Position numbers and translations under genes: made by a program. 39,062 nt of DNA, taken from IMG/VR virus record IMGVR_UViG_2698536355_000010; one strand, 5' to 3'. The stretch comes from a virus. Lineage: Duplodnaviria; Heunggongvirae; Uroviricota; Caudoviricetes. Below the pieces are notes generated by a model, which worked only from the letters and a program-made list of their open reading frames with translations, was not told the origin of the DNA and did not search any database. Positions 4,266-37,927 of the stretch are shown here, one piece after another (the stretch's first letter is position 1; every line of letters starts with the position of its first letter).

Positions 4266-4747
4266 GACAGCAGCCCTCCCACCGTTTTACTGATATCGCT
4301 TAAGGCAGACGTTGCCGTGTCCTGCAGATTATTCAGCTGCGCACTGAGATCACCGAACATATCGGACAGGGATTCATCCACCCGTTTGAGCGACAGAGTG
4401 AACTCAATCCGGCGCGGCATACCGTCGCGGAAAAACTCCGTTTTAGTCTGATTCAGTCCCTCAATCACATACATGCCGTAAATCGTGCCGCTGCCTTCAA
4501 TCAGGGGCCATGCTTTCCCCTGTTCTGCCATCTGCTCAAGTGCCAGCAACGACAGCCTGCCACCTGTTATCTCCGGCATAAGAACACCGGAAAGCGTCAG
4601 CATGTCGTTGTCCGGTCCCAGAAACTGCGTGGACGGACGTCGGTTTACCCGGCTGTTTGCCGCATGTCGCCAGCTGCGTTGATACTGCAGTTCCTGATAC
4701 GGCGCGGTGCGCAGCATAAACACGTACAATCCCAGCACCATCATCAT
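4262..4747 (-). CDS. U: tail protein U
   Basis: 161-aa ORF starting MMMVLGL..., overlaps D start by 4 nt; P2 gpU-like N-terminus and position. Confidence 0.8.
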   Translation of the reverse strand: MMMVLGLYVFMLRTAPYQELQYQRSWRHAANSRVNRRPSTQFLGPDNDMLTLSGVLMPEITGGRLSLLALEQMAEQGKAWPLIEGSGTIYGMYVIEGLNQTKTEFFRDGMPRRIEFTLSLKRVDESLSDMFGDLSAQLNNLQDTATSALSDISKTVGGLLS

Positions 4748-7700
4748 GCGTCGTATCCCCCCTGATCGCTGTAGTTACTCCTGGCTTTTGCCTTCAGCCT
4801 GCGTTCACGTTCATCAAGCTGTCGGGCCACCTCCCGCGCAATATCCTGCGCACTTTGTCCTGGCTGCGTCTGGATGATGATCTGCGTCGGTGCCTCAATC
4901 CGTTGAGCGGGCGGCACAGTGGCTGCACGACTCACCATCGCTTCGCCGCCTTTCGCGGGAAGTGCCAAAGGATGTAACGGCGGAAGCTCTGCAGGCGCGG
5001 CAGCAACGCCCATCATTCCGGCAACAACGGCAGCCAGTGCAGCTGTATTTCTCCGGCTGGTCACATTTGCCGGGCCGTTAACAATTTCCGGCCCGTTCTC
5101 ACCGACAATGCCAAACTGCCCGCGCGGGATATACCCACCGCTGTCATACATCCCCGCAAAACCATATCCCCATGATGGAAAACCACCTGATGGCATCATC
5201 ACTTTACCGTCTGTATTCACCGTCGCAGGTTGCTGACGCGTCACGCTTTCCGGCAGTTTTGCCTTTGCGGCCTCTTTACTGACAATGCCAAGTTTCTCCA
5301 GCAACCAGGAAACGCCGGATTTCAGCGAGTCCAGCGGATGCATGACCATATTCAGCCCTTCCGCCAGCGCCTCCCCGAATCGTCGCCCCATTGCCGCTGC
5401 GCTCTGCAGTTCGGCAGAGGTCGACTTAACGGGCGTCAGCAGATCAGTAAACCAGCCCCACAACGCCTGTACTTTGTCGCCAATCCACTGGAACACGGGC
5501 TTAAGCGGTTCGAATGCAGCACTGATGGGACCTGCCGCCGCTTTGAATCCTTCCACCACGCCACCGAGAAATGCGGTGATGGGTTGCCAGTATTTCCAGA
5601 CAACCAGCGCCACGCCCGCCAGTGCAGTAACCACAAGACCTATCGGACTGAGCAGAGCACCTAACAGACCAGATACGGCATACAGGGCAACGCGCAGCAT
5701 CGCCAGCGGACCGGATGCCAGCACACGCAGCACCGCGCCTGCGGCAGCCAGTCCACCGCGCAGTGCTGCCAGTGGATTCATAAACATCACAGCAACCGCA
5801 CGTAAACCGGATAATCCAGACCGCAAAAGTGCAACCGGCGCACCTGCTACCGTTTTCAGGACATTTCCCGTCAGTGATGTCGTGCGGCGCAAAGACGACA
5901 ACGGCGCAGTAAGTAAACCTGCGGCGTTGCCCGATGAAGCAAGCCCGCGTCGCAGCAGTGCCAGTGGTGCGCCAGCCAGCCAGGACAACGCGCTGCTGGT
6001 TCGAGTTACTGCTGCCGTAACGGAAGGTAACGTTTTGATACCCAGCACAGAGAATCCCAGACGGATCACTGCCAGCGGCCCCAGCACTGCAGCCAGCGCC
6101 ACCGCTAAGGTGCCGAGGCCCACGGTAACGGCAGCCACCACAGCGGCTACTTTCATCAGTGTGCCTGTCAGTTCCGGGTTAGCTTCCACCCAGCGACGCA
6201 ACGCCCCTGTGACGCTTTTCACCGTGTACAGAATATCCATCAGCGGCTGGCGCAGCGTTTCGCCCAGGCTGCTGAAGGTGTTCTGTGCTCCGGTTTTGAC
6301 CAGCAACCACTGCGCAGAAAGTGAATCCTTGTTGATGTCGGATTCTTTCTGCATGGAGCCGAGCGCATCATTGCCCGCTGTCAGTTTTAACTGACGCTGC
6401 AGTTCCGGCAGGTTGTTTGCCAGTTTCGCCGCGTCATCGCCAAACTCTTTACCAAACAACATGGTCATGGCAGACAGACGCTTATCCTGCGGCAGTGCGT
6501 TCACCTTCTCCAGCACGCGCTGGATGGTTCCCATCGCATCCTTCGTCATCTGCTTTTCAATCACTTCAGGATTGAGTTTCAGCAGATTCATCCCTTCAAA
6601 GAAACTCTTGCTTTGCATGGTGGCAATGGACAATTCACGCACCATCGCGTTTGCTGCACTGGCTGCAACCTCTGGCGCAGCGCCCAGTGTAAGGAAGGTG
6701 GAACCCAGCGCCGCCGCTTTACGATAATCCAGACGATCAGCCACACCGCCCAGACGTTGCATGACATCAATGATGTCTGCCCCTTTCGACATGGCGTTAT
6801 CATCCAGATAGTTCAGCGCATCACCGAGCTGTTCAATATTGCGGGTAGGGATTTTGTAGAGTTGGGCGATTTTCCCCAGACTTTCTGACAGTTCATCCGC
6901 AGGCAACTCAAAGGCTGTTGCCGCCTTTGCTGCCGTGCTGGCGAAGGCCAGCAGATCACGTTTCTGGTCTTCCCAGCTGTCGTCAGGGTTTGCGATGTTC
7001 ATGCGCGCACCACCTTCAACCAGTGCGGCGAAGTCCACCGCACCGTTTTCCATCGGCAACTGTTCGCTGGCAGCTTTGATGGCATCCTGCATTTCATAAA
7101 AACGTGCAGTGCGGTTGCCATTATCGTCACGCAGACCATTGACCTGCTTTGCCACACCTTTCATGGCATCTTCCATGCTGGTATAGCTTTTTACTGCCGC
7201 CATCACTGGCGTCCCCATTGCCAGCCCTGCAGCCGTGGTGGTGGCTCCGGCTCCTGCGATGCGATCGCGCACCTCCAGAGAACGAGCATAACTGGCACGC
7301 GCTGCATTCATCCTGCGCTGAGCTTCCCCCAGTCGCTTCAGCCGCGCCTCCTGTTTCGACAGTTCCTGGTTATAACGTGATGTTTCACGGGCTAAACGGG
7401 CAGTTGCTCCCGCATCATCTTTCGCAGAAATTCCCGCCCGGTACAGTTCTGCACGCACAAGCGCCGTTTGCTTCTGCAAATATTTTTGTTGTTCTTCCAG
7501 GCGTTGGACTGCCAGCGTTTGCCGACCTAAAGCCACAAGGTGCCGTTGTGATGGTTGTTCCATCGACTCCAGCTCAGAGCTAAGCAAATTAGCCTTCTGT
7601 CTGGCATAGTTCAGCCTGTCGCCTAACTTCTTGTTATCGACCTGCAGCTTGCGAAATTTTTCCAGGCTGTTACCCGCCTGATTGAGTTGCTTTAATGCGT

Positions 7701-7821
7701 CACGGGAGTTTCTGATTGCGCCAGCCAGCTCTTTCGAACTGGCCTGTGCAGCACGGAATGGGCGGGTGAGTTTGTCAACCGCATTAAGAATGACCTGCAG
7801 GCGCAGGTTATTATCACTCAT
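4744..7821 (-). CDS. T: tail tape measure protein
   Basis: 1025-aa ORF, coiled-coil N-terminal third, Ala/Gly-rich hydrophobic middle, positioned between E/E' and U. Confidence 0.85.
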   Translation of the reverse strand: MSDNNLRLQVILNAVDKLTRPFRAAQASSKELAGAIRNSRDALKQLNQAGNSLEKFRKLQVDNKKLGDRLNYARQKANLLSSELESMEQPSQRHLVALGRQTLAVQRLEEQQKYLQKQTALVRAELYRAGISAKDDAGATARLARETSRYNQELSKQEARLKRLGEAQRRMNAARASYARSLEVRDRIAGAGATTTAAGLAMGTPVMAAVKSYTSMEDAMKGVAKQVNGLRDDNGNRTARFYEMQDAIKAASEQLPMENGAVDFAALVEGGARMNIANPDDSWEDQKRDLLAFASTAAKAATAFELPADELSESLGKIAQLYKIPTRNIEQLGDALNYLDDNAMSKGADIIDVMQRLGGVADRLDYRKAAALGSTFLTLGAAPEVAASAANAMVRELSIATMQSKSFFEGMNLLKLNPEVIEKQMTKDAMGTIQRVLEKVNALPQDKRLSAMTMLFGKEFGDDAAKLANNLPELQRQLKLTAGNDALGSMQKESDINKDSLSAQWLLVKTGAQNTFSSLGETLRQPLMDILYTVKSVTGALRRWVEANPELTGTLMKVAAVVAAVTVGLGTLAVALAAVLGPLAVIRLGFSVLGIKTLPSVTAAVTRTSSALSWLAGAPLALLRRGLASSGNAAGLLTAPLSSLRRTTSLTGNVLKTVAGAPVALLRSGLSGLRAVAVMFMNPLAALRGGLAAAGAVLRVLASGPLAMLRVALYAVSGLLGALLSPIGLVVTALAGVALVVWKYWQPITAFLGGVVEGFKAAAGPISAAFEPLKPVFQWIGDKVQALWGWFTDLLTPVKSTSAELQSAAAMGRRFGEALAEGLNMVMHPLDSLKSGVSWLLEKLGIVSKEAAKAKLPESVTRQQPATVNTDGKVMMPSGGFPSWGYGFAGMYDSGGYIPRGQFGIVGENGPEIVNGPANVTSRRNTAALAAVVAGMMGVAAAPAELPPLHPLALPAKGGEAMVSRAATVPPAQRIEAPTQIIIQTQPGQSAQDIAREVARQLDERERRLKAKARSNYSDQGGYDA

Positions 7822-8304: not shown

Positions 8305-8820
8305 TCAGAGGCCGAGGGCGTTGCGGTGCGCTTCCATCAGGTCCACACCGTCCACAATTTCCACCATGTTGATAAGGTCCACTTCATAGAGCACCTCACC
8401 ATTGATGGTCAGCTTCGCGTAGCTGTTGGTACTGGTCACTTTGGTGGTGTTGCTTTCGCCCGTCTTCCACTCACCGGAATCCACTTCTTTGTGACGTCCA
8501 CGCACCACAAGCTCCACGGCCTGCACTTCCCCGGTATCGTCACGCTGGATAGAGCCGGTAAAGCGCAGCTGGATGCCATCCACCGTGGCTTTGCCCATCT
8601 GCTTAAACAGCAGCAGTTCAGTACCACCAATGGAAAATTCTGTGTCCAGCGCACTGTCATCAAGCCCCAGATCCACATCCACTGCCCCCGGCATTCCGCC
8701 GCCGCGATACTTCTCATATTTGCGGGTGAATTTCGGCAGCGTCAGCGACTCAACGATCCCCTGCCAGTTGTTCCCGTCGTTAAACAGGTTCAGGTGTTTT
8801 AATTTGCGTGGTAAAGCCAT
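8305..8820 (-). CDS. FII: major tail tube protein FII
   Basis: 171-aa ORF, position and size of P2 gpFII downstream of sheath gene. Confidence 0.85.
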   Translation of the reverse strand: MALPRKLKHLNLFNDGNNWQGIVESLTLPKFTRKYEKYRGGGMPGAVDVDLGLDDSALDTEFSIGGTELLLFKQMGKATVDGIQLRFTGSIQRDDTGEVQAVELVVRGRHKEVDSGEWKTGESNTTKVTSTNSYAKLTINGEVLYEVDLINMVEIVDGVDLMEAHRNALGL

Positions 8821-8829
8821 GTTGTCCCC

Positions 8830-10002
8830 TTACGCGCTGACCTGGCTGGCGAAATTCACCAGGTACTGATCGGTGATGCGCTGACGCAACATCAGGTTTT
8901 CAAGTGGCGGCACTGGCGTGTAGTCGTAGTCGATGGTGAGTTTTCCGGCTTTCAGAGTGTCTTTGTCGTTCACCGACTCGTCCAGCCAGCAATCACCACC
9001 AATGAGATACCCCTGACTGACCAGGCTGCGCATTTTGGCGCGGATGCCCTCGATAATGTCGCGCGCCAGCGACGGGTTCAGCGGTTTGTCCACTGCCCAC
9101 ATGTGTGCTTCTGCCATCGTGTCCATCAGCACCTGCGCCGTGCGGGTGTAGTTTTCGAAGGCAAAGAGCGGGTCATCACTCAGGCAGCGGGAACCCCAGA
9201 AGCGGAAACCGTCTTTGCGGATAAGGGTGGTGACGTCGTTCTGGTTCAGCAGTCCAGCATCGGTTGCCGTGTCCTGCAGATCCCAGAACACATCAGCAGA
9301 AATTCCAGTGACACCGTTAACGCCCACATTGGACAGGCTTTTGTGCCATCCGGTCTGATCATCAATTTTGGCACGCAGACCAAGCGCACGGGCGGTGGCA
9401 TAAGCCGTTGCTTCGGCATTCAGCACCGTGTCCCAGCCAGTAAAGTCAGGCCAGATCAGCATCCCTTCGCGCTGGCTGAAGTTTTCGCGGTAAGTGATCG
9501 CCTCCTGCACAGTCTTGCAGCCATACGCTGACAGGTAAGCAAACCCACGCAGGCTTTGCGCCACGCCCAGCAACTCAGTAGCTACCGCCTTGGTGTCGTG
9601 GCCTGGCACGCCGAGAATGCGCGGTTTAACGCCGAGCTGTGACTGGGCAGATAACAGGGCTTTCATACCTGTTTTTTTACCTTCAGCAGTCACTGCGCCG
9701 ATGATATTGGTCGTGGTTTCTTCTTCCGTTTCACCCTGCGGCACACGCACAACAACGGTCACGGGTTTTGCCTGGTCAGCGATGGCATCCAGCGAACGGG
9801 CCAGCGTGCCGGACTCACCCGCTTTACCGCTGGCAGTCAGCACATCAGTGATCAGCACGGGTTTATTAAGAGGAAACATTTTTGCATCGGCATCATCGCC
9901 CGTGCAGACCATACCCACGATGGCGGTGCTCACCGTGGTAATGGATCGGGTGCCTTCGTTGACTTCAACAACGCGCACCCCGTGGTGGTAATCCTGAGCC
10001 AT
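8830..10002 (-). CDS. FI: tail sheath protein FI
   Basis: 390-aa ORF, P2 gpFI-like, first gene of F operon. Confidence 0.85.
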
Positions 10003-10078
10003 AGTGGCGAACCTCCTGATTGGATTAGGCTTCGCCCTATGTTGAAGTGATTGTGCCTGACAAACAGCTAAGCGCAGT

Positions 10079-10096
10079 TGTACCGTTATTCACACA
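10079..10096 (-). promoter_or_regulatory. candidate Ogr/B-dependent late promoter element (P_F)
   Basis: TGT-N12-ACA dyad tgtaccgttattcacaca centred about 85 bp upstream of FI start; near-identical to dyads at 23283 and 15833. Confidence 0.5.
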
Positions 10097-10144
10097 AAAT
10101 GACGGTATTTGTCTGCTTGCAGGGATAATCAAAATAATGCTGAT

Positions 10145-10711
10145 TCAGGGAGATTCATTGCTCTTATTTGCCGGAAATTTTCTATAAATGGTAGAAACGC
10201 CTACATCAAAAATCAGTGCAATACGCAGTCTTGATTCTCCGGCCTCGAGTAAACGTCCAATCTGTGCCCACTGTTCGGTGGTCAACTTAGGACGGCGTCC
10301 ACCTACTCTGCCTTTAGCACGAGCTGCAGCCAGCCCTGCCCTGGTACGTTCAACTATCAGTTCGCGTTCCATTTCAGCCAGGGCACCCATGACATGAAAA
10401 AAGAAACGGCCCATTGGGGTACTGGTATCAATACTGTCAGTCAGGCTTCTGAAATTCACACCACGCTGGCGCAACTCTTCTATCAGCGTAACAAGATGCC
10501 GCATACTGCGCCCCAACCTGTCCAGCTTCCAGACAACCAGCGTGTCTCCTGCCGATAGTGTCCTGAGCAGTTTTTTCAGCCCCGGTCTGTCGGACTTAGT
10601 GCCACTGATTTTATCCTCAAAAATCCGCTCACATCCCGCGCAGTTCAGTGCATTACGTTGCAAATCGGTGTTCTGGTCATTTGTTGACACGCGTACATAG
10701 CCAATAAGCAT
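10145..10711 (-). CDS. serine-recombinase DNA invertase (Gin/Hin/Pin/Cin family)
   Basis: N-terminus MLIGYVRVSTNDQNTDLQRNAL with catalytic Ser motif and C-terminal HTH; start set at third ATG (10711) which has GGGGGA 5 nt upstream. Confidence 0.9.
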   Translation of the reverse strand: MLIGYVRVSTNDQNTDLQRNALNCAGCERIFEDKISGTKSDRPGLKKLLRTLSAGDTLVVWKLDRLGRSMRHLVTLIEELRQRGVNFRSLTDSIDTSTPMGRFFFHVMGALAEMERELIVERTRAGLAAARAKGRVGGRRPKLTTEQWAQIGRLLEAGESRLRIALIFDVGVSTIYRKFPANKSNESP

Positions 10712-10738
10712 GATCATCCCCCTGAATAAAAACCGGAG

Positions 10739-11248
10739 ATGATGCCAGTTAGCCGTAATCTCTGCATTTTCTTAAACGTTGGTTTGGGAGAAACGATAAA
10801 TAAAGCCTCCGGAGCTATGCAGAAATCGGCCAATGGATCTGATATTTCTGATGTATCAGCCTTCCGAAATGCGCTCCAGTTAGGGACCGCCGCAACACGA
10901 GATGTTGGAGCAGATAATGCCTCGAAGTTACTGGATTTAGACAGCTTCAGGTCAATGATGTCAGGGAATGGCTACATCTACATTCCATGCATTGCGACGA
11001 CAGGAAACCCGGTGAAACTTATGTTGCAGTGGGGAACGGTGGCAACACAAAAGGGAGCTGATGCTGGATATGCCTTACCATTTGCTTTTCCCTATGCAGG
11101 CTTATTTGCGACCGGAAACCGTGGAACATCTGGCTACAATGCCGCGATGAATGTGCGTATTGCCAGCAGAACGCATATCAGTATTCAGAACTGGTCGCCA
11201 TCCGGAGAGGGCACCGAAGATTGTTGTTTTATCGCGCTGGGGTATTAA
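10739..11248 (+). CDS. alternative tail-fibre C-terminal segment (Sv'-like), expressed only after inversion
   Basis: ORF on opposite strand to H ending ...CCFIALGY (H ends ...HFEAIGY); shares A-x-x-RDVG block with H; likely lacks its own start and is read only when fused to the H constant region after inversion. Confidence 0.65.
   Translation: MMPVSRNLCIFLNVGLGETINKASGAMQKSANGSDISDVSAFRNALQLGTAATRDVGADNASKLLDLDSFRSMMSGNGYIYIPCIATTGNPVKLMLQWGTVATQKGADAGYALPFAFPYAGLFATGNRGTSGYNAAMNVRIASRTHISIQNWSPSGEGTEDCCFIALGY
10767..10792. repeat. candidate invertase crossover site (gix/hix-like), right
   Basis: ttttcttaaacg-tt-ggtttgggagaa fits TTnTCnAAAACC-nn-GGTTTTnGAnAA half-site pattern at 17 of 20 defined positions; 56 bp upstream of invertase start. 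Confidence 0.5.
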
Positions 11249-11250
11249 GA

Positions 11251-11661
11251 ATGAATAAATTTTATAAAGGCTCTTTCTATCCGAAAGCACTAAAAGGGGT
11301 ATATATCAGCGCCGGTTCATGGCCTGAAAATGGCGTTGATGTTGATGATGAAACAATGGCAATTTACACAGGCGTAGCGCCACAAGGCAAAACGCTGGGG
11401 GCTGATAAAAATGGTAATCCTGCGTGGATTGATATCCCGCCACTCTCCGCTGAACAACAGATTATTCAGGCTGAACAGAAAAGAACAGTATTGCGTTCTA
11501 TGGCTGATAAGGAAATAGTCTGGAGACAGGATGCTTTTGATGCGGAAATCGCGACGGCAGAAGAAACCGCCGCGTTATCTGAATGGAAAAAATACCGGGT
11601 CTTGCTGATGCGCGTTGATACAGCAAAACCCGTATGGCCTGTCAATCCGCAGGATATTTAA
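11251..11661 (+). CDS. tail fibre assembly protein (Tfa'/U'-like)
   Basis: Starts MNKFYKGSFYP; C-terminus EWKKYRVLLMRVDTAKPVWPVNP is the conserved Tfa C-terminal motif. Confidence 0.8.
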   Translation: MNKFYKGSFYPKALKGVYISAGSWPENGVDVDDETMAIYTGVAPQGKTLGADKNGNPAWIDIPPLSAEQQIIQAEQKRTVLRSMADKEIVWRQDAFDAEIATAEETAALSEWKKYRVLLMRVDTAKPVWPVNPQDI

Positions 11662-11875
11662 CGGGGGCGTTGTAGGTGGTGACATATTCAAGCAGTTCTG
11701 TTGGATATGTCACCGTTGCTGCATCTCGCTCTACGTTAAATGTATCCGCTCCCCAGATAACACACTCCCTCAAAAATGCCTCCACCTCTGGCGAGACTTC
11801 AACCGCATCATCAGGTCGCTCTTGTTCAGAAACATAAAAACCAACGGTCGTTGGGCTGAAATAGATATTCTCCAT
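11642..11875 (-). CDS. tail fibre assembly protein N-terminal fragment (apparently truncated)
   Basis: 77-aa ORF MENIYFSPTTVGFY... directly downstream of H with a Tfa-type N-terminus but no conserved C-terminal domain; overlaps convergent tfa' by 20 bp. Confidence 0.45.
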   Translation of the reverse strand: MENIYFSPTTVGFYVSEQERPDDAVEVSPEVEAFLRECVIWGADTFNVERDAATVTYPTELLEYVTTYNAPVKYPAD

Positions 11876-11877
11876 AT

Positions 11878-13362
11878 TTAGTATCCTATTGCTTCAAAAT
11901 GCAGTGTCGGTGTTTCGCCGAGATTGGGTGTCGTATACGCCACAGTGAATCGCGTTCTTGATACGTCAGCGCCAGAATCAGTATCGCGATGCGTTGACAG
12001 TGATTTTCCGGCCATTGTTGTCTGTTTCGAAAACTCTGAGCTCGCTAGTGTTGCCAGCGTTGCTATTTGTGCATTTGGGAATTGTCTGGGGAAATTAACC
12101 CTGTAGTAATGGGTGTAGTACGTCACCCCACCAAGCACCTGCGCGTTGAAGTTACCAACTGGTGTCAGTGTCACAGTGCCAGCCTGTCGAATCATACCAT
12201 TTGGGAGAATATCCCAGGCAGTTTGTCCGTTTCGCGACATACCAAATGCGGACATGTCCGGGAGTTGATTATTACCGGTTCCGACATCCCGTTTTGCCGC
12301 TTCTCCCAATTGAAGGTATGCGAGAAGACCAGCTACATCCTTTCCACTCAAATTAGTCAGCGTATTGTCCAGCGGTTGTTTACCTGCCAGCGCATTAAGC
12401 ATTGTCGTGGCAAAGTTCGGATCATTCCCCAGTGCCGCCGCCAGTTCGTTCAGTGTATCCAGTGCAGCAGGTGCAGAACCCACCATTGCCGCAATCGCCG
12501 ATTTCACAAAAGCCGTGGTGGCAATCTGTGTATTGTTGACCGACTGTGCCGCAGTAGGTGCTGTTGGCGTTCCGGTGAGTGCCGGACTCGACAACGGCGC
12601 TTTCAGTGCCAGCGCATTGTTAATGGTGGTACTGAAATTCGGATCATTGTTAATGGCTGCGGCTATTTCTTTTAGCGTGTCCAGCGTGGCTGGCGCACCA
12701 TTAATAAGGGCCGTCAGTGCCGCCTGAACAAACGCGGTGGTCGCAACCTGCGTGGTGTTATTCCCTGCCGCTGGCGTTGGCGCTTTGGGGGTTCCGGTAA
12801 ATGTCGGGCTGGCTTTTGGCGCATACTGTGAATGTGGGTCCTGTGCGGCAAGATGTTTTGCCATCAGGTCATCCACGTACACTTTCAGCTCCAGTACCTT
12901 GTCATCCACATACTTGCGGGTTGCCAGCACTACGGCAGGGTCGATTTTCAGGGTGATATTGTCCGTGCTGCTGGTAATCAGCACCATGCGCACGGTCTGG
13001 GTGCGCCCGCTGCCTTCAGCCAGTTGCGGCTTATAGCTTTCCGGGCAGTTGCCCACGGCAATCAATGCTCCGGACTCATCAAACAGGCCCACTTCACGTA
13101 TCCACCAACCGCCCTCGTTTTCAGGGATCACCTGTTCAGCAATAATCTGGCTGCTGTTCTGCGGGTCGATATAGAGCATATTCAGCGCAGCCCGGCGTTT
13201 CTCATTTACCAGTGCAGTCTGCTTTGCGTCCGGCGTTGGCAATGTCCCTCCGCCATCGCCGACCGCCATATGGGTAATTTTTAAAGGCACACCGAGCGCG
13301 GCGGCGCTGGCAAGTTTCGCCGCGCCAATATCCGTCAGCAGGGTATAAAATTTTGTGCTCAT
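11878..13362 (-). CDS. H: tail fibre protein H
   Basis: 494-aa ORF; N-terminal roughly 330 aa resemble P2 gpH (MAVGDGGG, AESYKP...AEGSGR, NELAAALGNDPNFATTM), C-terminal part divergent. Confidence 0.85.
   Translation of the reverse strand: MSTKFYTLLTDIGAAKLASAAALGVPLKITHMAVGDGGGTLPTPDAKQTALVNEKRRAALNMLYIDPQNSSQIIAEQVIPENEGGWWIREVGLFDESGALIAVGNCPESYKPQLAEGSGRTQTVRMVLITSSTDNITLKIDPAVVLATRKYVDDKVLELKVYVDDLMAKHLAAQDPHSQYAPKASPTFTGTPKAPTPAAGNNTTQVATTAFVQAALTALINGAPATLDTLKEIAAAINNDPNFSTTINNALALKAPLSSPALTGTPTAPTAAQSVNNTQIATTAFVKSAIAAMVGSAPAALDTLNELAAALGNDPNFATTMLNALAGKQPLDNTLTNLSGKDVAGLLAYLQLGEAAKRDVGTGNNQLPDMSAFGMSRNGQTAWDILPNGMIRQAGTVTLTPVGNFNAQVLGGVTYYTHYYRVNFPRQFPNAQIATLATLASSEFSKQTTMAGKSLSTHRDTDSGADVSRTRFTVAYTTPNLGETPTLHFEAIGY
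12311..12336. repeat. candidate invertase crossover site, left (inside H)
   Basis: Minus-strand ttctcgcatacc-tt-caattgggagaa matches the right site at 18 of 26 positions (9-bp block ttgggagaa identical), at the same position relative to the RDVG block. Confidence 0.35.
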
Positions 13363-13964
13363 GGATTCACTCTCATTGTGTCAATAACATGGACCACCCC
13401 GCCTTCATGCGCGGTGCCGCCAGAAATAATTGTTTCGTTGATATACGGATAGATCGTGATTTCTTCGCCAAGATAGCTGGCGGCACCCACCCAATGCGGA
13501 CCGCTGGTCTGCAGATTGATGGACATGCCGATCATGTGACGGCTACATGGTTTGGCATCGCTTATCAGTCGCTCAAGTTCCAGATAGGTATCTTCAGTGA
13601 TGCCCTGGTCCTGCACGCCGATATCCAGACGAAACGTGCCCGGTGTCTCTCCGGTCTGCCACCACTCAATAATGCGGATCAGAAAGCCGAACGGCTCCAC
13701 CACCCGACGCACGGCACTGGTGGTCCCTTTATGCTGATGAATATAAAAAGCATCCTTCACCACCTGGCGCTTGACGCTTTCTGTCCAGCCCTCGTCCCAG
13801 CGATCCACAGAGAACGCCCAGGCGAGATAAGGCAGGAAGCTGACCGGACAGGTAGCCGGATTCCACAAGTCACGCAGCGGCACCTGCAGATCAGAAATCC
13901 CGCTACAGGTCTGCGCCAGTCGGCGCTCCAGTGAAGTTGAACCCGGTGGCAGCAGACTATTCAT
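13359..13964 (-). CDS. I: baseplate assembly protein I
   Basis: 201-aa ORF between J and H, P2 gpI position. Confidence 0.8.
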   Translation of the reverse strand: MNSLLPPGSTSLERRLAQTCSGISDLQVPLRDLWNPATCPVSFLPYLAWAFSVDRWDEGWTESVKRQVVKDAFYIHQHKGTTSAVRRVVEPFGFLIRIIEWWQTGETPGTFRLDIGVQDQGITEDTYLELERLISDAKPCSRHMIGMSINLQTSGPHWVGAASYLGEEITIYPYINETIISGGTAHEGGVVHVIDTMRVNP

Positions 13965-15786: not shown

Positions 15787-15832
15787 ATGGAAATCATTGC
15801 CTATCGTAAACGACAGTGATATTAAAGAGGTT

Positions 15833-15850
15833 TGTGCAGTCACCCACACA
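15833..15850 (-). promoter_or_regulatory. candidate Ogr/B-dependent late promoter element (P_V)
   Basis: tgtgcagtcacccacaca, TGT-N12-ACA with the same extended pattern and orientation as the P_F and P_O dyads; centre only about 55 bp from V ATG. Confidence 0.4.
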
Positions 15851-15884
15851 AGATGATCATCAAATCTGTTTTGGAAGGATTCTT

Positions 15885-17405
15885 ATGAGTTGCTTAGATC
15901 AATTATCTTCAGAAAATAAAAAATCCCTATTATCATCAGTATTTTCAAAGAGCTATTTCCTCTGGATTGGCTCTGGATTTTCGTACAATTTCGGATATCC
16001 AAGTTGGGGGGCCGTACTTGAAGAAATAGCAAAGCGAATAGAGTACCCGTTAAAATTAGATTCATCACAGCCTCTGCGTGCTGCAGAATTACTTTTAAGT
16101 TATGCGATGAGTGAATCATCAATAAAAGAATATGATTTCAATTCGCTCGTTGCCAGGACGATTATAGATTTAAAAACAGAAACTAAAGAACCAAGATGGC
16201 TTAAAAGATTCAAACTCTTCGCTCCCAATACAATTGTAACAACTAACTGGGATGAGGTGCTTGAAGAAACATTTGAGCATATGGCAAATAAAATCATCAG
16301 AAAGGATCCATTCCCTAAAGTATCAACAAAAGGGAAAAATATCTTCAAAATTCATGGTGACGTCGGAAAACCTGATTCGATTGTTATAACACAAAGTCAA
16401 TACTTTTCTTTTCAGCGCGAAGACACTTATCTTAGCCGAAAAATTTACACATTGTTTTCAGAAATGTCCCCTATATTCATCGGTTACAGCTTAACCGACC
16501 CAAATATAGGTTTCCTTTATGAAGAAGCATTAGCACATCTGCATGGAAAAAACCCGCCAGCATTCATGGTAATTCACCCAGATGCAAACCCTTTAACTTT
16601 CGAGGAGACAAAGTATTTATTTAAATCAAAAAATATACACCTGATTAAAGCAACCATAGAAGACTTCCTTGCAGATTTATCTCAGGAATATAAATCCTTT
16701 AAAGAATCACCTCATCGTTTCAACCTTGAGCACGAACATGTTCTTCCCAAAATAAAAACTGTAATGGATACCGTTACGAAAGGAAAAAAAAATAAAAAAG
16801 CGGAACTAGAAGCCTTATGTCCTCAAAGAGCTGCAAGCTGGGCCGTGACAAAAGCCATAATTGACATTCTAAAGAAACCAATATTGTACATTCAATTCGG
16901 CGGAAAACTTCTTTCTCCAGACAATATTATCCCCTACAGAGAGTTCGATGCTTTAGTTAATGTAGTCATAACACTTAGCAACAATCACGGTTACCCTGAC
17001 GAGCTTATACGTCAAGATTTTCATGCTTCTGTTGTCAAAATGTGCATCGAAACAGAAGGGGTTTGGGACTTCAACTATGCTGAAGTACCTTTCTCTAACA
17101 TTTTAAGAATAAGCCCTAGCCCCGGCACTGAAAGTTTCGACAAAAAAATATCCCATATAATAGAAATTATGCGATGGTCGTCCCCATCTGAAATAGGGAA
17201 GTGCTGGGCAACATGGAATGTATTTAAAGAAAAACAAGATTGGATTAGCCACAGTGATATTGTTGGCATTCTTTCGAAACTTGAAACCGATGGTGACTTA
17301 GAATACCAACCCAGAGATAAAAAATGGCTAAACATCCTGAAAAAATGCCCTCACGCAACGGCTGCAGATATCAAGAGAATTGATACTCTGATAACCCCAG
17401 CTTAG
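15885..17405 (+). CDS. SIR2-like (DHS-like NAD-binding fold) protein with uncharacterised C-terminal domain
   Basis: Motifs FLWIGSGFS (GxGxS), IVTTNWDEVLEE (TTNYD-type), KIHGD, IFIGYSLTDPNI; ATG 15885 preceded by GGAAGGA; gene strongly AT-rich versus flanks. Confidence 0.8.
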   Translation: MSCLDQLSSENKKSLLSSVFSKSYFLWIGSGFSYNFGYPSWGAVLEEIAKRIEYPLKLDSSQPLRAAELLLSYAMSESSIKEYDFNSLVARTIIDLKTETKEPRWLKRFKLFAPNTIVTTNWDEVLEETFEHMANKIIRKDPFPKVSTKGKNIFKIHGDVGKPDSIVITQSQYFSFQREDTYLSRKIYTLFSEMSPIFIGYSLTDPNIGFLYEEALAHLHGKNPPAFMVIHPDANPLTFEETKYLFKSKNIHLIKATIEDFLADLSQEYKSFKESPHRFNLEHEHVLPKIKTVMDTVTKGKKNKKAELEALCPQRAASWAVTKAIIDILKKPILYIQFGGKLLSPDNIIPYREFDALVNVVITLSNNHGYPDELIRQDFHASVVKMCIETEGVWDFNYAEVPFSNILRISPSPGTESFDKKISHIIEIMRWSSPSEIGKCWATWNVFKEKQDWISHSDIVGILSKLETDGDLEYQPRDKKWLNILKKCPHATAADIKRIDTLITPA

Positions 17406-26210: not shown

Positions 26211-26876
26211 TCAAAGCTCTGAGTCTACAGGCTCATGATAAAGGTTTACAGGGTAGTGTATAACCTCATAATTAAGTTGACTAACAGTGTGAGTATGTTG
26301 ACTGTAAAAAACCAATGGGTTTCTCTTACAAGGAGTTATCGAGATAGACTTACAAGCATGAATTCTTGGAGCCGATTTATCTAAATGAGCCTTCCACTTA
26401 GTCATCATTTCATTACATTTTTTATTACGCGTATATATAATTAACCCACCACTTGCACTGTCTACAGTACCAGTGCTATATCGCTCAGTGAGTTGTGCAT
26501 ACCCTTTAAATAAATAACCATATGAACCAGTGTGTTTTTTGGCCTCGCCATGCCAAGTAAATCTATTCAACTTTATTGTTATATCACAATGACCTCGTTG
26601 ATTATTTTCATGATATGCTTCAATTCCCATATCTTTATTTTTTATATTTGCCAGTAAAATTAAAGTAAGCTGATCTTCTGTTAAATCAAAATTCAATTTA
26701 TTTGAATTTTCCTCAATTGCCTGTACAGCAGAATCAAGCTCAATTCTTACAAACTGTTTGACGTTCTCATACGACTGGAGAGCAAACCTAACGCGAGTAA
26801 TAGAAGCATTGATACGCTGAAGAAAAATATCATTATCAATTTCAGCTAAACTCATTGGTGCAGACATTTTTAACAT
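26211..26876 (-). CDS. hypothetical protein, cargo operon gene 3 (possible PD-(D/E)xK-like motif)
   Basis: 221 aa; ATG overlaps upstream stop (ATGA); HCDITIK...(14)...GEAKK resembles a D...ExK motif; AT-rich. Confidence 0.6.
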   Translation of the reverse strand: MLKMSAPMSLAEIDNDIFLQRINASITRVRFALQSYENVKQFVRIELDSAVQAIEENSNKLNFDLTEDQLTLILLANIKNKDMGIEAYHENNQRGHCDITIKLNRFTWHGEAKKHTGSYGYLFKGYAQLTERYSTGTVDSASGGLIIYTRNKKCNEMMTKWKAHLDKSAPRIHACKSISITPCKRNPLVFYSQHTHTVSQLNYEVIHYPVNLYHEPVDSEL

Positions 26877-27310
26877 CAGACAATATCCTTTAATTTAGAT
26901 TCATCTAATGTAAAAAAAGGAAAGACGAAGGACTTATAGTCATACATAATCTCCCCTGTAAATGGGTTTACTAAAGATTGATTAATTTCAGCCTCTATAA
27001 CATCTTCTAACTCAAGCTCAATAGGATCATGAAAATCATCAATAAACCAATAATTGAGTTTTAAAAACTCAACCTTTGGACTACAAAGAATTTGTATAGC
27101 TGGGTACACAACCTGCTCATATGCTTCAGGTTGTATACATCCTTTATAACCATTAACGATACTAAATAAATCTTTATAACTCAGAGCTATATTAGGCGAT
27201 TTCTTTGCTCTCACACCAATTTCATCATACAAATAGCAAGCTAGCGCCCCTATATCAGGGCGCTCTGCACATATTTCTTTGATGATCTGGGGCATATCAC
27301 CATCCTTCAT
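26876..27310 (-). CDS. hypothetical acidic protein, cargo operon gene 2
   Basis: 144 aa from ATG 27310 with GGAG 6 nt upstream; tightly packed between genes 1 and 3. Confidence 0.55.
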   Translation of the reverse strand: MKDGDMPQIIKEICAERPDIGALACYLYDEIGVRAKKSPNIALSYKDLFSIVNGYKGCIQPEAYEQVVYPAIQILCSPKVEFLKLNYWFIDDFHDPIELELEDVIEAEINQSLVNPFTGEIMYDYKSFVFPFFTLDESKLKDIV

Positions 27311-27322
27311 TGCTGACTCCAA

Positions 27323-28429
27323 TTATAATATCAGCTTTGTGAGGGTTTCGAAATCATCTTTGGATATACATTTGCTTAATATAGCATAATTGACAGGAGA
27401 GCACCCACTACCACCTAAATGTCTGCGTAATGTTCCTGGAATGATAAGCTCTACACTATCCGCCAATTGCAATTTTGGATTATTCCTATCTACTCTAATT
27501 CCAATACGATATAAACCAATATTACCTACAGCTTTAATGCCCTCTTTATTAAACAGATCATCACGCAAGTCTTTCTTAGCCACATTTTTCTTTTCCTTAT
27601 GAGTGGTTCCCTCATAAGTTAAAAATGACAAATCGAACACCTTATAACTTAAACTTGAATATGGCATTACATTTTGCTTGAAAATTGGCTCAATTAATGG
27701 ATAAAAATCCTTTTCCGATGAATTAAATTGATAACCTGCGCAATTATATAACTCACGAATAAAATTCGTTTTCGCAAAAACGATATTATCACCAACAACA
27801 TTACCATTAGTATCAATTAATACATGGATTTTATTTGAAGCTGAATCTAATATACACACATCAAAACACTGACGTTTTTCTTTTCTCTTCGCAATGATTT
27901 CATCAAACTGTTTGTATGCTGCTAACTTTGACGGAGGGACTTTCTCTCTTACAACCAGCTCCCTGATAGATGAAAATACCAAAATAGACTGAGTATTTTG
28001 CTTAGAGTAATTAACAAGCTCAAGTTGATTTTTAATAGCATGCTGTAATTGAACATCATCAACAATCGTTTCGACTAATGATGTTGGTTGCTTCATCATA
28101 TTCCATTGGAGAGCATATCTATCATCAAGTAATTTAATTACTTGACTATCTACAGACAAACTAAATATTGCTTTTTCACCATAAACAACCTGCCCAAAGA
28201 CTAAATCATTTACACTTGCAATGATTTTGTCAAATTTTTGCCTATCTTTCTTTTTAAAATCAATGAGGCTTTCTAGTATTTTGTCGTTTGTTGCTTCACG
28301 CCCTCTACCTGTAGGTAGCCCTAAAGAAGCAATAATTGGTCTGGCGATATGCCACGTAAAACGTTCAGTTAAGGCTAAGATCGACTTTAACTCAAAGTCA
28401 GAAAGCACCACTGGGACACCACTTGTCAT
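27323..28429 (-). CDS. hypothetical protein, cargo operon gene 1
   Basis: 368 aa from ATG 28429 with AGGTG upstream; no nucleotide-binding or other motif recognised by eye; AT-rich. Confidence 0.6.
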   Translation of the reverse strand: MTSGVPVVLSDFELKSILALTERFTWHIARPIIASLGLPTGRGREATNDKILESLIDFKKKDRQKFDKIIASVNDLVFGQVVYGEKAIFSLSVDSQVIKLLDDRYALQWNMMKQPTSLVETIVDDVQLQHAIKNQLELVNYSKQNTQSILVFSSIRELVVREKVPPSKLAAYKQFDEIIAKRKEKRQCFDVCILDSASNKIHVLIDTNGNVVGDNIVFAKTNFIRELYNCAGYQFNSSEKDFYPLIEPIFKQNVMPYSSLSYKVFDLSFLTYEGTTHKEKKNVAKKDLRDDLFNKEGIKAVGNIGLYRIGIRVDRNNPKLQLADSVELIIPGTLRRHLGGSGCSPVNYAILSKCISKDDFETLTKLIL

Positions 28430-28589
28430 AACATGCACCTAGTCAACCCAAAAGCAATTGAAAATCGCTCTTGTCTTAATTTTTTCCATCAATATCTAAC
28501 AAATTACCTTAATGTTGAAAAAGTTTGCAAGCCATTTGCGTCTAAAAAGTGACTTGACTCAATGTGTTACAAAGCTTAGCGAGCGCGCG

Positions 28590-28608
28590 CTCGTATCCCC
28601 GCCACGCC
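28590..28608 (-). other. cos-like cohesive-end site
   Basis: Minus strand reads GGCGTGGCGGGGATACGAG followed by CGCGCGCT, closely resembling the remembered P2/186 cos (GGCG[A/T]GGCGGGGAAAGCA...GCGCGCT). Confidence 0.5.
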
Positions 28609-28647
28609 TGCCCGCTTTATGTAGTGGTTTTCATGCACCTGCATGAC

Positions 28648-28676
28648 ATAAGCAAAAGCCCGCCAGCTCTGGCGGG
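28648..28676 (-). terminator. rho-independent terminator downstream of HNH gene
   Basis: Stem gcccgccag/ctggcgggc (28657..28676) followed on minus strand by TTTTGCTT. Confidence 0.5.
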
Positions 28677-28790
28677 CATCAGCAAAAACGATCCTCAAAC
28701 GATCATGCGATTTCATGCGACATAGACATGCGTTGGCAAAAATGTACGAAATACTCAGCTTACAGGAAATGGTCTTTTTCCAACCTCCAG

Positions 28791-29510
28791 TTAGCCAAAG
28801 CAGAAACCAATATTGCAATTTGAAACTCCACAGTTGTGAAATTGATGTGGACCGACTCTTAGCTTGTGTTCGTCTCCTACAATCCGAGTCCCCTTAACCA
28901 ACATATCTAATCTTTCCACAATCAATCTTTCAGGCGCATCAACTTTAATAATTAAACGAGGACCTTTCCTTTTTTCTATAATAGTTATTCTAGGACCAAC
29001 AACCTGAACATCCCAATGCCTTGCACTACAAACCCACTCATTCTTAATTAATTCAAGATTAACAATACCTTGACTATCGTAAAATTTACCCGAAATAAGA
29101 AAAGCATTATTTTCTTTTTCAATGGTTAACAATGGCTCATTTTGAAACATTATTGGTACAGTACAGGATTCAAACGTCGCACCACCAAATATTATTGTTG
29201 GATGCCTATCAGAAAAGTCCAATATATCGGCCACATTCCCTTTTTGTAAGGCTGCAGGAGATTCCATTGCTTTAATTATTTTCTCTTTAGAGTAAAGACG
29301 TTTCGTTACTTTCGCATGGCACGTAGGACAAAGTAGTGCTATTGCATTTGGAGAGTGCTCCTTTGCATCAGCGTATGTGGGAATTACATGCTCATACTCA
29401 ACAATGGGAGAAGCACAAACAACGCAACCAAAGCCACAGCGCTGCCTTACCTCCAGTTTTACAGGTTCAGGAATTGTTCTAGATAACCCATGCTTGTTAA
29501 TAGTTGTCAT
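28791..29510 (-). CDS. HNH-endonuclease-domain protein
   Basis: N-terminal CGFGCVVC...EYEHVIP...N...LLCPTCH (HNH pattern); C-terminal 160 aa unassigned; AT-rich; AAGGTAAGG before ATG. Confidence 0.7.
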   Translation of the reverse strand: MTTINKHGLSRTIPEPVKLEVRQRCGFGCVVCASPIVEYEHVIPTYADAKEHSPNAIALLCPTCHAKVTKRLYSKEKIIKAMESPAALQKGNVADILDFSDRHPTIIFGGATFESCTVPIMFQNEPLLTIEKENNAFLISGKFYDSQGIVNLELIKNEWVCSARHWDVQVVGPRITIIEKRKGPRLIIKVDAPERLIVERLDMLVKGTRIVGDEHKLRVGPHQFHNCGVSNCNIGFCFG

Positions 29511-35633: not shown

Positions 35634-36230
35634 ATGTCAACATCAAAGTACCCAAGTGAGATCAAAATAAATCCCAATAAAGGTGGTAAGGCTGCGATTG
35701 AGCGATTAGTCGAAGCCTATGGCTTTACGACACGACAGGCTTTAGCTGATCACTTGGAAGTATCAAAAAGCACACTAGCGAACAGGTATTTGCGGGATAC
35801 ATTTCCTGCTGACTGGATAATCCAATGTGCTCTTGAAACAGGAACCTCCCTCAAATGGTTAACTACCGGACAAGGCCTTAAGCAAAGCTCGCTGACAGCA
35901 GCTACAGAAGAGCTTGTTAAGTTTCGCCTTGCCGCAGGCAAAATGATTGAAGACGGTTCATATGTCTTCGATTCATCATTTCTTCCTGCAAACCTTTCAT
36001 CACCAATTGTTGTTCAGGATGGACTCGTCACATACATTTGTGATCAAAAATTTTCTGAAGTACTTGATGGAAACTGGTTAATCAATATCGACGGAACCTA
36101 TTCCATTCGAAAAATCACAAGGCTTCCTAAAGGAAGGATTAAAATTACAACAGCAGAGAATAGCTTTGAATGTGCATTTTCTGATATTGAAGTGGTTGCT
36201 TGTATAAGAAGTACAATAGTCTCGAATTAA
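35634..36230 (+). CDS. cI: CI immunity repressor (phage 186 type)
   Basis: 198-aa ORF with N-terminal HTH (TTRQALADHLEVSKSTLANR); divergent from apl. Confidence 0.8.
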   Translation: MSTSKYPSEIKINPNKGGKAAIERLVEAYGFTTRQALADHLEVSKSTLANRYLRDTFPADWIIQCALETGTSLKWLTTGQGLKQSSLTAATEELVKFRLAAGKMIEDGSYVFDSSFLPANLSSPIVVQDGLVTYICDQKFSEVLDGNWLINIDGTYSIRKITRLPKGRIKITTAENSFECAFSDIEVVACIRSTIVSN

Positions 36231-36250: not shown

Positions 36251-37927
36251 ATGAATTCATTTGCCATCGTTATACTCTTATTAGCATTTCTCGCCCCTGT
36301 TCTAGCTGTAATATTATTTAAACAAAGTAAAAAACACAAAGCGGCTATAGATAACCTGACAGCTAACAACATAGCCCTTTCTAACCAACTGATTGAAAAT
36401 CAAGAAAAACTAGCACAGACCGTACGAGAATTATCAGAGCTTGAAGGGCGAGCAGCACCATTGTGGCAATACGAAGAATTGCACAGCGCAGTAATGGATG
36501 CAGAGAATAAGATAAAAAATGCGGACTCAATAGCCAAGCAAAAAATAGATGAAGCCCAAATTAAGGCGGCTAAAACAGTAAACGAAGCAAATTATCAAGC
36601 TCAGATGACAATAAGCAACGCTAATAGCGAAGCTATAGCAATCACCAAAGACGCTCGCGATGCACGCCTGAAAGCCAAAGAACGTCTTGATAATGCTAAT
36701 AATAAAGCAAATGAGCTAATCTCAAATGCTAATGACAATGCAGTAAAAATTATTTCTGATGCAGAAGAAAGAGCAAAGGAGATTGCTGGTTCAGCATATG
36801 AAGCTAAAGAGTTTGCAGAAAAATATGAAGCAGTTGCAAAATCAATGAAAAATAAAATTGAAGGTTATGGTGATGAATGGATCATCCCTAACCGTAGTGT
36901 ACTTGATGAGCTGGCAGAAAATTATGAATTTACAGATGCAGGCAAGGAATTACAAAAAGCCAGAGAGTTAACCAAATCATTAATAAAAACTAATAAAGCT
37001 GCTTCGTGTGATTATGTTGAGCAAAACAGGCGTAATACTGCCATAAACTTTGTTTTGGATGCCTTCAATGGAAGAGTTGACAGTATTTTATCAAAAGTCA
37101 AACACAACAATTTTGGAAAACTTTCCCAAGAAATAAAAGATGCATTTCAACTAGTAAATTACAATGGCTCTGCCTTTAGGTCCGCAAAAATAAGTGACAT
37201 CTATCTTCAGGCAAGACTCAACGAGCTAAAATGGGGTGTAGCAGTTAATGAAATTATGCTCGAAGAAAAAGAAGAGCAAAGAAGGATTAAAGAACAGCTT
37301 CGTGAAGAGGAAAGAGCTCGTAGAGAATATGAAAAAGCGATAAAAGAAGCTGAAAAAGAAGAAAAAGCTATTCAGCAAGCTATAAATAAAGCAACGAAAG
37401 AACTTATGCTTGCAAATGAAGAACAACGCTTAGCTTTAGAGCAAAAAATAGCTGAACTACAGTTAAAATATGAAGAAGCTGAAGCTAAAAATCAACGAGC
37501 TATTTCTATGGCTCAACAAACCAGATCAGGCCACGTCTATATCATTAGTAATATTGGTTCATTTGGCGAAGATGTATATAAAATTGGAATGACACGCCGC
37601 CTTGAACCACTTGATCGTGTTCGTGAACTCGGAGATGCTAGTGTTCCTTTTTCGTTCGATGTTCATGCGATGATTTATAGTGATGATGCACCATCATTAG
37701 AAAACCATCTGCATAAAGTTTTCAACGAAAAGCAGGTCAATAAAATTAACTCACGAAAAGAGTTTTTTAACGTAAATTTAAAAGAAATCAAATCAGTTAT
37801 TGAAGACATGAACATCAACGCCCACTGGACAATGTTTGCAGAGGCGAAAGAATATAGAGAGTCTCTAGCTATTGAGCAGGAGCGCAAAGCAGCCACTTCC
37901 GCCAACGATGAACTACATGTTGCTTAG
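36251..37927 (+). CDS. membrane-anchored coiled-coil protein with C-terminal T5orf172/GIY-YIG-like domain
   Basis: N-terminal TM helix (FAIVILLLAFLAPVLAVILF), roughly 400 aa A/E/K/N-rich coiled coil, C-terminus VYIISNIGSFGEDVYKIGMTRR...PFSFDV...LENHLHKVF...EFF; AT-rich; AGGA before ATG. Confidence 0.75.
   Translation: MNSFAIVILLLAFLAPVLAVILFKQSKKHKAAIDNLTANNIALSNQLIENQEKLAQTVRELSELEGRAAPLWQYEELHSAVMDAENKIKNADSIAKQKIDEAQIKAAKTVNEANYQAQMTISNANSEAIAITKDARDARLKAKERLDNANNKANELISNANDNAVKIISDAEERAKEIAGSAYEAKEFAEKYEAVAKSMKNKIEGYGDEWIIPNRSVLDELAENYEFTDAGKELQKARELTKSLIKTNKAASCDYVEQNRRNTAINFVLDAFNGRVDSILSKVKHNNFGKLSQEIKDAFQLVNYNGSAFRSAKISDIYLQARLNELKWGVAVNEIMLEEKEEQRRIKEQLREEERARREYEKAIKEAEKEEKAIQQAINKATKELMLANEEQRLALEQKIAELQLKYEEAEAKNQRAISMAQQTRSGHVYIISNIGSFGEDVYKIGMTRRLEPLDRVRELGDASVPFSFDVHAMIYSDDAPSLENHLHKVFNEKQVNKINSRKEFFNVNLKEIKSVIEDMNINAHWTMFAEAKEYRESLAIEQERKAATSANDELHVA

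Follow-up and report, generated by a model that had tools for sequence, protein, structure and literature searches.

A probable Fels-2/Mu/P1-type invertible tail-fibre switch in a P2-like prophage of Escherichia coli

Main finding

The IMG/VR virus record IMGVR_UViG_2698536355_000010, a stretch of 39,062 nucleotides hereafter called the window, consists of host genes running into a P2/186/Fels-2-like E. coli prophage (Peduoviridae), and between the FI gene and the tail-fibre gene H of this prophage lies an element which we consider, with a probability of about 90%, to be an invertible tail-fibre switch of the Fels-2/Mu/P1 type. A DNA invertase gene (10145..10717, minus strand) is located next to a 1,534-bp segment (10780..12313, measured from core to core) flanked by two short crossover sites, and inversion of this segment exchanges the last ~145 residues of H and the partner gene following it for another fibre tip and a canonical tail-fibre assembly (Tfa) protein. 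A preliminary description of the same DNA, made from the sequence alone, had proposed that inversion at this locus swaps the fibre C-terminus, and the proposal is supported by an intact invertase, two dyad sites, fusions that stay in frame and the occurrence of both orientations in public genomes.

Both orientations of the segment in bacterial genomes

A flipped construct composed of positions 9800-10779, the reverse complement of positions 10780-12313 and positions 12314-13600 was searched against complete E. coli genomes. It matched 11 of them with 100% coverage as one collinear piece at 96.0-98.0% identity, and the arrangement found in the window was matched likewise by ~25 complete E. coli genomes, so the possibility raised beforehand that only one orientation would ever be observed did not hold. 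Both junction types of the element are also present among metagenome contigs. The RefSeq annotation follows the orientation, with a fused 505-aa "phage tail protein" in the flipped genomes and a 494-aa product in the direct ones.

The junctions were read in the flipped genome L001 (NZ_CP063479), which is among those annotated with the 505-aa product. At its left junction ...TTTTCTTAAACGTT is followed directly by CAATTGGGAGAAGCGGC..., the partner being switched right after ...AAACGTT, and at its right junction ...CCCAAACC is followed by AAGGTATG..., that is, the junction reads ...CCCAAACC-AA-GGTATG.... Since both junctions match the predicted recombinant sites base for base, the exchange interval is the 2-bp core.

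After positions 10780-12313 had been flipped in silico, L001, which comes from chicken meat in Laos, showed 0 differences over 6,801 bp to the direct genome L009 from human urine in China, and likewise 0 differences over 6,801 bp were found between the flipped genome L013 and the direct genome L012. The two pairs differ from one another at 61 positions, and L011, representing a third flipped lineage, is still more distant. Two pairs that are identical but for the flip and are 61 differences apart imply at least two independent and recent inversions. These observations concern strand exchange in the element family as represented by other genomes, and not in the molecule of the window itself.

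Orientation polymorphism alone does not identify the enzyme, and the two sites do have one run of 9 bp in common, TTCTCCCAA, so RecA-dependent recombination between short inverted repeats, or errors of assembly, might be held responsible for the flips in place of the invertase. The exchange, however, is limited to the 2-bp centre of two hix/cix-type 26-bp dyads, the identity shared by the sites is far below what RecA requires, and a Gin-family invertase gene lies 50 bp away. Moreover, 11 complete assemblies, independent of one another, show the flip, in two lineages the paired genomes are perfectly identical elsewhere, and the genomes with an invertase pseudogene (four OZ5016xx sister isolates, among which the pseudogene was checked in OZ501666 only) all share one orientation. 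On the grounds of the core-confined exchange and the 11 assemblies, homologous recombination and assembly artefact were rejected as the cause of the flips, and the chance we would leave to them is close to negligible.

The crossover sites

Crossover site 1, on the invertase side, occupies positions 10767..10792 (plus strand) and reads TTTTCTTAAACG-TT-GGTTTGGGAGAA with the core at 10779-10780, and site 2, located inside H, occupies positions 12301..12326 (plus strand) and reads TTCTCCCAATTG-AA-GGTATGCGAGAA with the core at 12313-12314. Both are 26-bp imperfect dyads, arranged in inverted orientation and possessing complementary TT/AA cores, and the outer TTNTC is kept in all four of the half-sites. 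The 26-mer starting at 12301 agrees with site 1, taken as reverse complement, at 18 of 26 positions, which makes it the best match within the 9-14 kb interval. Two gix/hix-like sites had been predicted in the preliminary description, with the first one placed exactly where we find it; the second had been put at 12311-12336, a stretch which lies 10 bp too far to the right and matches site 1 at only 7 of 26 positions in either orientation.

The 39-kb window has exactly two occurrences of the pattern TT.TC-N7-WW-N7-GA.AA, namely sites 1 and 2, compared to 0.12 in shuffled sequences, and when the window was scored for pairs of half-sites the same two sites came out on top with 20 and 19 of 24, the next best candidate reaching 15. 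By hand count, site 1 is 19/26 identical to cixL of P1 and site 2 is 18/26 identical to cixR, the crossover points of both being annotated in the P1 record. A generic inverted-repeat search with a seed of 7 did not place the pair among its top 25 results, a search of that kind being unsuited to such short and imperfect sites, for which a motif-based scan is needed.

A third internal site was considered at ALQLGTAATRDVG in the silent cassette (cassette A, residues ~45-57), 32 codons into the segment, which at the protein level mirrors the H junction YLQLGEAAKRDVG. It was rejected, as the underlying DNA has neither the TTNTC/GANAA arms nor an AA/TT core and is not matched by the pattern. The stretch resembles the remnant of an earlier junction more than a shufflon site, in which case the present site may have arrived together with the 32-codon extension.

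Contents of the segment and reading frames of the fusions

The H open reading frame (ORF; 11878-13362, minus strand) codes for a protein of 494 aa, whose constant part (12314..13362, minus strand; residues 1 to ~349) carries the N-terminal Phage_tail_fib domain (E 2.8e-65) and follows the operon order V-W-J-I-H. Its variable C-terminus, cassette B (11878..12313, minus strand), contains a Gp53-like_C domain at residues 386-494 and is the one expressed in the orientation of the window. Beside H, in the position of gpG or tfa, there is the partner gene of cassette B coding for a protein of 77 aa (11642..11875, minus strand). The other half of the segment holds the silent fibre C-terminus, cassette A (10781..11248, plus strand; ~155 codons), also with a Gp53-like_C domain (E 1.7e-8), the open frame of which begins upstream of the segment at the ATG at 10739 (ORF 10739-11248), and a gene for a canonical Tfa of 136 aa (11251..11661, plus strand; Caudo_TAP E 2.4e-30, phrog_188 E 9e-42). 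Both ORFs of the silent cassette are intact.

Pfam thus corroborates the earlier reading of a second fibre C-terminal ORF and a Caudo_TAP tfa gene on the strand opposite to H. Several details of that reading need to be amended. The two cassettes had been described as head-to-head, but they are convergent (tail-to-tail), their 3' ends overlapping at 11642-11661, and the supposed second tfa gene linked to H is the 77-aa ORF, which has no Pfam match and is Tfa-like (phrog_188, E 9e-5) only in residues 1-31. An A-x-x-RDVG block had been noted just past each site; this applies to H, where GE-AAKRDVG comes directly after site 2, but not to the silent cassette, where the block (AATRDVG, 10889-10909) is found 32 codons past site 1.

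The core takes codon positions 2-3 in both frames, CTT in H and GTT in the silent ORF, and owing to this common codon phase both fusions are in frame and open. By the exchange ...LLAYL is continued by GLGETINK... without a change of frame, and this holds for the reciprocal fusion too. Tips A and B resemble each other just in a 33-aa linker (LQLG-AA-RDVG...), where they are 55% identical, and are unalignable elsewhere. Divergence of this kind would be expected of tips with differing receptor specificities, and by analogy with other fibre switches the inversion may change the host range.

The invertase gene and a putative enhancer

The invertase ORF of 190 aa contains Resolvase and HTH_7 domains. 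Translation is likely to start at the ATG at 10711, which makes a protein of 188 aa with the N-terminus MLIGYVRVSTNDQ..., as annotated in the RefSeq relatives, and the reading frame is intact, with no frameshift and no stop. The Pfam matches are Resolvase PF00239 (E 2e-53) and HTH_7 PF02796 (E 2e-14, residues 140-183), and the protein also matches phrog_125 "DNA invertase" (E 2e-100). Residues 1-184 align with Gin of Mu (PDB 3uj3) with an E-value of 2e-92, compared to just 3e-34 for gamma-delta resolvase, and the catalytic serine is kept in the motif RVSTNDQ aligned to Gin. The identity values are 85% with Fin of Fels-2, 79% with Cin of P1, ~75% with Mu-like Gin/Hin proteins and 98% with the invertase of the lineages known in both orientations. 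The domains and the full-length Gin match agree with the preliminary description, in which a Gin/Hin-family invertase was placed between FI and the fibre genes, and judged on both counts by its sequence the protein is a small serine recombinase of the Hin/Gin/Cin/Pin/Fin subfamily.

A putative Fis-dependent recombinational enhancer spans positions 10622..10693 (minus strand), i.e., nt 19-90 of the invertase coding sequence. The stretch aligns without gaps with the P1 feature "enhancer of Cin-mediated C-segment inversion" and is identical to it at 56 of 72 positions, although coding constraint would also tend to preserve it. Two 15-mers of the form G-N13-C are present in the candidate enhancer (nt 22-36 and 71-85), and the ATTTG and TAATG found between them may be compared to the ATTTA/TAATG elements with which Hin makes contact in its own enhancer (PMC3798978). 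These features are suggestive of an enhancer function in the first ~90 nt of the gene.

The promoter scan upstream of the invertase gave only a terminator-like hairpin with a T-run at 10731-10750 (minus strand), between site 1 and the invertase start. The hairpin, a match to the consensus only, could insulate the invertase from read-through out of the late fibre operon.

Proposed mechanism and the state of the window copy

According to the proposed mechanism, invertase dimers would bind the 26-bp sites at 10767-10792 and 12301-12326, probably assisted by Fis bound to the enhancer in the first ~90 nt of the invertase gene, and 2-bp staggered cuts at the TT/AA cores followed by rotation and religation would bring about the 1,534-bp inversion. 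In the orientation of the window H would be produced as the 494-aa protein ending in tip B, with the 77-aa partner gene following it; after inversion the H N-terminus (to ...LLAYL) would be fused to tip A, giving 505 aa, and followed by the canonical Tfa chaperone. A population of lysogens would then release phage with either of the two receptor-binding tips.

Several points weigh against this reading as applied to the window copy. Compared to the enzyme of the flipped pairs, its invertase has three substitutions, one of which, Q162L, falls in the HTH_7 region, and the inner half-site of site 2 deviates beside the core, having AATTG instead of AAACC. No sigma-70-like promoter was found by a simple scan upstream of the invertase. 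The stretch proposed as enhancer also encodes the conserved catalytic N-terminus, and its similarity to the P1 enhancer is confounded by coding constraint. The closest four relatives (H1-H4, 99.6-99.9% identity) are all in the window orientation. Support for inversion comes from other genomes and not from reads of the window molecule, and the effect on host range is argued from the parallel with the G segment of Mu and the C segment of P1.

One may accordingly ask whether the window carries a fossil switch, locked by the degenerate half-site, by the three substitutions or by lack of expression, with the silent cassette as a relic. The shared orientation of H1-H4 and the missing promoter-like sequence would fit such a state, as would the decay seen in related prophages, where the invertase is a pseudogene in L002 (OZ501666; 1846-2412), with an internal stop, and in L008 (646-1211, 1212-1618), with a frameshift. 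Nevertheless, the invertase of the window is full-length and keeps the catalytic serine, the ORFs of the silent cassette have not decayed, and the same sites, including the AATTG half-site variant, are present in the L001/L009 and L012/L013 pairs, which differ by the flip alone. Four or five relatives are, besides, too few to prove locking. We therefore find a fossil unlikely, though less so than the other rival explanations, and favour a switch which is probably still functional in the window.

Two of the genomes mentioned above show peculiarities of their own. The closest relative, NZ_AP027829.1 (H1, 99.9% identity), has an IS2 inserted within the 3.8-kb region; E. coli 19KM1863 (NZ_CP151030) likewise carries the prophage with 99.9% identity. 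In L008 the inner half-sites are both like that of cassette B, and the annotation shows no fibre ORF in the interval from the invertase to tfa; on this layout, L008 is a decayed or rearranged switch.

The 77-aa partner protein

The 77-aa protein encoded next to tip B has no Pfam or NCBIfam match and is devoid of the conserved Tfa C-terminal region. It has 34 homologues with 59-97% identity in E. coli, Citrobacter, Enterobacter and Phytobacter, nearly all of them 77-80 aa long, and 22 positions are invariant across the family. In P2-like contigs lacking the invertase its gene is the sole gene between H and FI, that is, in the gpG slot. A recent truncation of Tfa was ruled out as the origin of the ORF, since the length of 77-80 aa is maintained down to 59% identity and the gene is found alone in the gpG slot. 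The AlphaFold2 (AF2) model of the protein is confident (predicted local distance difference test, pLDDT, 91.7), and no relative was found when it was compared to solved structures. The protein is probably a minimal partner or chaperone of the fibre tip acting in place of a canonical Tfa.

Comparison with known invertible fibre segments

The window shows what is characteristic of an invertible fibre segment, namely a crossover site inside the fibre gene and two alternative C-termini, each with its own partner gene, facing each other convergently. In the G segment of Mu there is, likewise, a constant fibre N-terminus with two alternative C-termini and an assembly gene for each, although the phage family differs. 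The G segment is ~3 kb long, and its gix sites have a GA core. That inversion of G switches the host range is established (Grundy & Howe 1984; Kahmann 1985).

The C segment of P1 resembles the window in its TT/AA core, in an enhancer placed early in the invertase coding sequence, where the putative one of the window would lie, and in the alternative S C-termini and U/U' genes, which are convergent inside the segment as the window cassettes are. It differs in length (4.2 kb versus 1.5 kb) and in the placement of the invertase, as the 3' end of cin abuts cixL, while in the window it is the 5' end of the gene that abuts site 1; P1 is, moreover, an unrelated myovirus and plasmid prophage.

The gene order of the fin locus in Fels-2 (Felsduovirus; Salmonella LT2/LT7) is like that of the window, I-H-tfa / tfa'-H' / invertase / FI-FII, and in both the invertase gene borders on the segment with its 5' end. 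There is little difference between the outer half-sites, which read TTCTCACATACC in Fels-2 against TTCTCGCATACC in the window on the H side and TTTTCATAAACC against TTTTCTTAAACG on the invertase side, although the core is TC/GA in Fels-2 and TT/AA in the window. The Fels-2 segment is also longer (~2.7 kb), having longer variable parts and two full-length Tfa genes where the window has one cassette with a 77-aa partner, and its fibre tips are unrelated to those of the window. Inversion in Fels-2 between LT2 and LT7 has been reported (PMC7953296).

In P2-like prophages of enteropathogenic E. coli (EPEC) E2348/69, an invertase acting with inverted repeats gives alternative fibre C-termini (Goldberg et al. 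2014, PMC4272514), and the inversion variants were shown by sequencing and PCR to coexist in clonal cultures (PMC4272514). One of the EPEC loci is a shufflon with three repeats and four variants, whereas the window has two sites only. The same invertase and flanking fibre genes are annotated in the records of Cartapus, 500465-1 and Klebsiella KP12. The element of the window thus adds one more example to a well-known kind, and the understanding of DNA invertases is left unchanged by it.

The prophage and its accessory genes

At the left end of the window there are two host genes, ybjM (288-665) and a gene for a YbjL-type permease (935-2620), and the left boundary of the prophage falls between 2620, where the ybjL-like ORF ends, and 3165, where the D ORF starts. 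No tRNA genes were found in the window. On the minus strand D, U, T (4744-7821), E, FII (8305-8820) and FI (8830-10002) are followed by the invertase and the fibre region, and these by I, J, W and V. The genes from D to FI and from I to V are named from ORF order and size only, while Pfam provided the assignments of the H N-terminal domain, the invertase, the gpA replication protein, the CI repressor and the integrase. Farther along the window the gpA gene, a 186-type CI repressor gene (35634-36230) and the integrase gene (38010-39062) are encountered. In P2, G and FI are separated by fun(Z), which lies on the opposite strand, and the term "Z/fun position" given to the locus at the outset is apt, as the invertase occupies this slot between FI and the fibre genes.

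Three sets of accessory genes were observed. An ORF of 529 aa with a SIR2_2 domain (15816-17405, plus strand) adjoins the baseplate gene V on the opposite strand and matches PADLOC PDC-S25 (E 8e-29) and ThsA (E 7e-25); from these matches it is likely to be anti-phage defence cargo at a P2 accessory slot. A DUF4041/T5orf172 protein of 558 aa (36251-37927, plus strand) is encoded between the CI repressor and the integrase and matches the PD-Lambda-1 model with an E-value of 2e-120. Upstream of gpA, at 26211-29510 (minus strand), there are accessory ORFs of 221, 148 and 371 aa, which have no Pfam or PADLOC match, and then a 239-aa ORF with an HNH-endonuclease domain.

The presence of defence-type genes (SIR2_2/ThsA-like and PD-Lambda-1) might be taken as a sign that the switch is kept chiefly for the benefit of the host, for instance by altering a tailocin-like particle or the surface and adsorption properties of the cell, as has been reported for PinQ/PinR in cryptic prophages. 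Inversion by prophage serine recombinases is reported to block T2 adsorption (PMC12529663; bioRxiv 10.1101/2025.03.28.646004). Against such a role, the P2-like genome is largely complete as regards the genes seen, namely gpA, CI, the integrase, H and the D-to-V set named from ORF order and size, and the fibre tips and their partners are laid out as in Cartapus, 500465-1, KP12 and Fels-2. We regard a switch maintained mainly for the host as very improbable and prefer to see it as a phage fibre switch.

Diversity of cassettes and significance

In metagenome contigs (L014-L041), at least 13 other cassette starts are found next to the invertase-side half-site TTTTCTTAAACGTT, and other E. coli prophages (L006, L007) possess different tip-plus-Tfa cassettes at the same sites. 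Several of the metagenome contigs end ~30-250 bp from the site, which is what one would expect if a segment occurring in both orientations interrupts the assembly. The 3.8-kb query had as many as 6-7 matches within one genome, but since FI, I and the constant part of H are included in it, not every match need be a complete switch locus. In all, ~1,800 E. coli genomes have matches. It is conceivable, though in our opinion rather doubtful, that the 26-bp site with the LGEAAKRD linker is a universal module boundary in enterobacterial P2-like prophages and that the invertase occasionally recombines sites of co-resident prophages. If this were true, recombination across prophages would drive cassette exchange and large chromosomal inversions in addition to local switching.

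In the RefSeq relatives the genes of the locus are labelled "recombinase family protein", "gp53-like domain-containing protein" and "hypothetical protein", and with such labels the true fibre products, and the very existence of two of them, are missed. The prediction of phage host range from a single assembly is consequently incomplete for prophages of this kind. The locus also draws attention to a conserved 77-aa protein standing in for the canonical Tfa with one type of tip and, with 6.8 kb identical save for the flip, it is a clean natural demonstration of recent serine-invertase activity.

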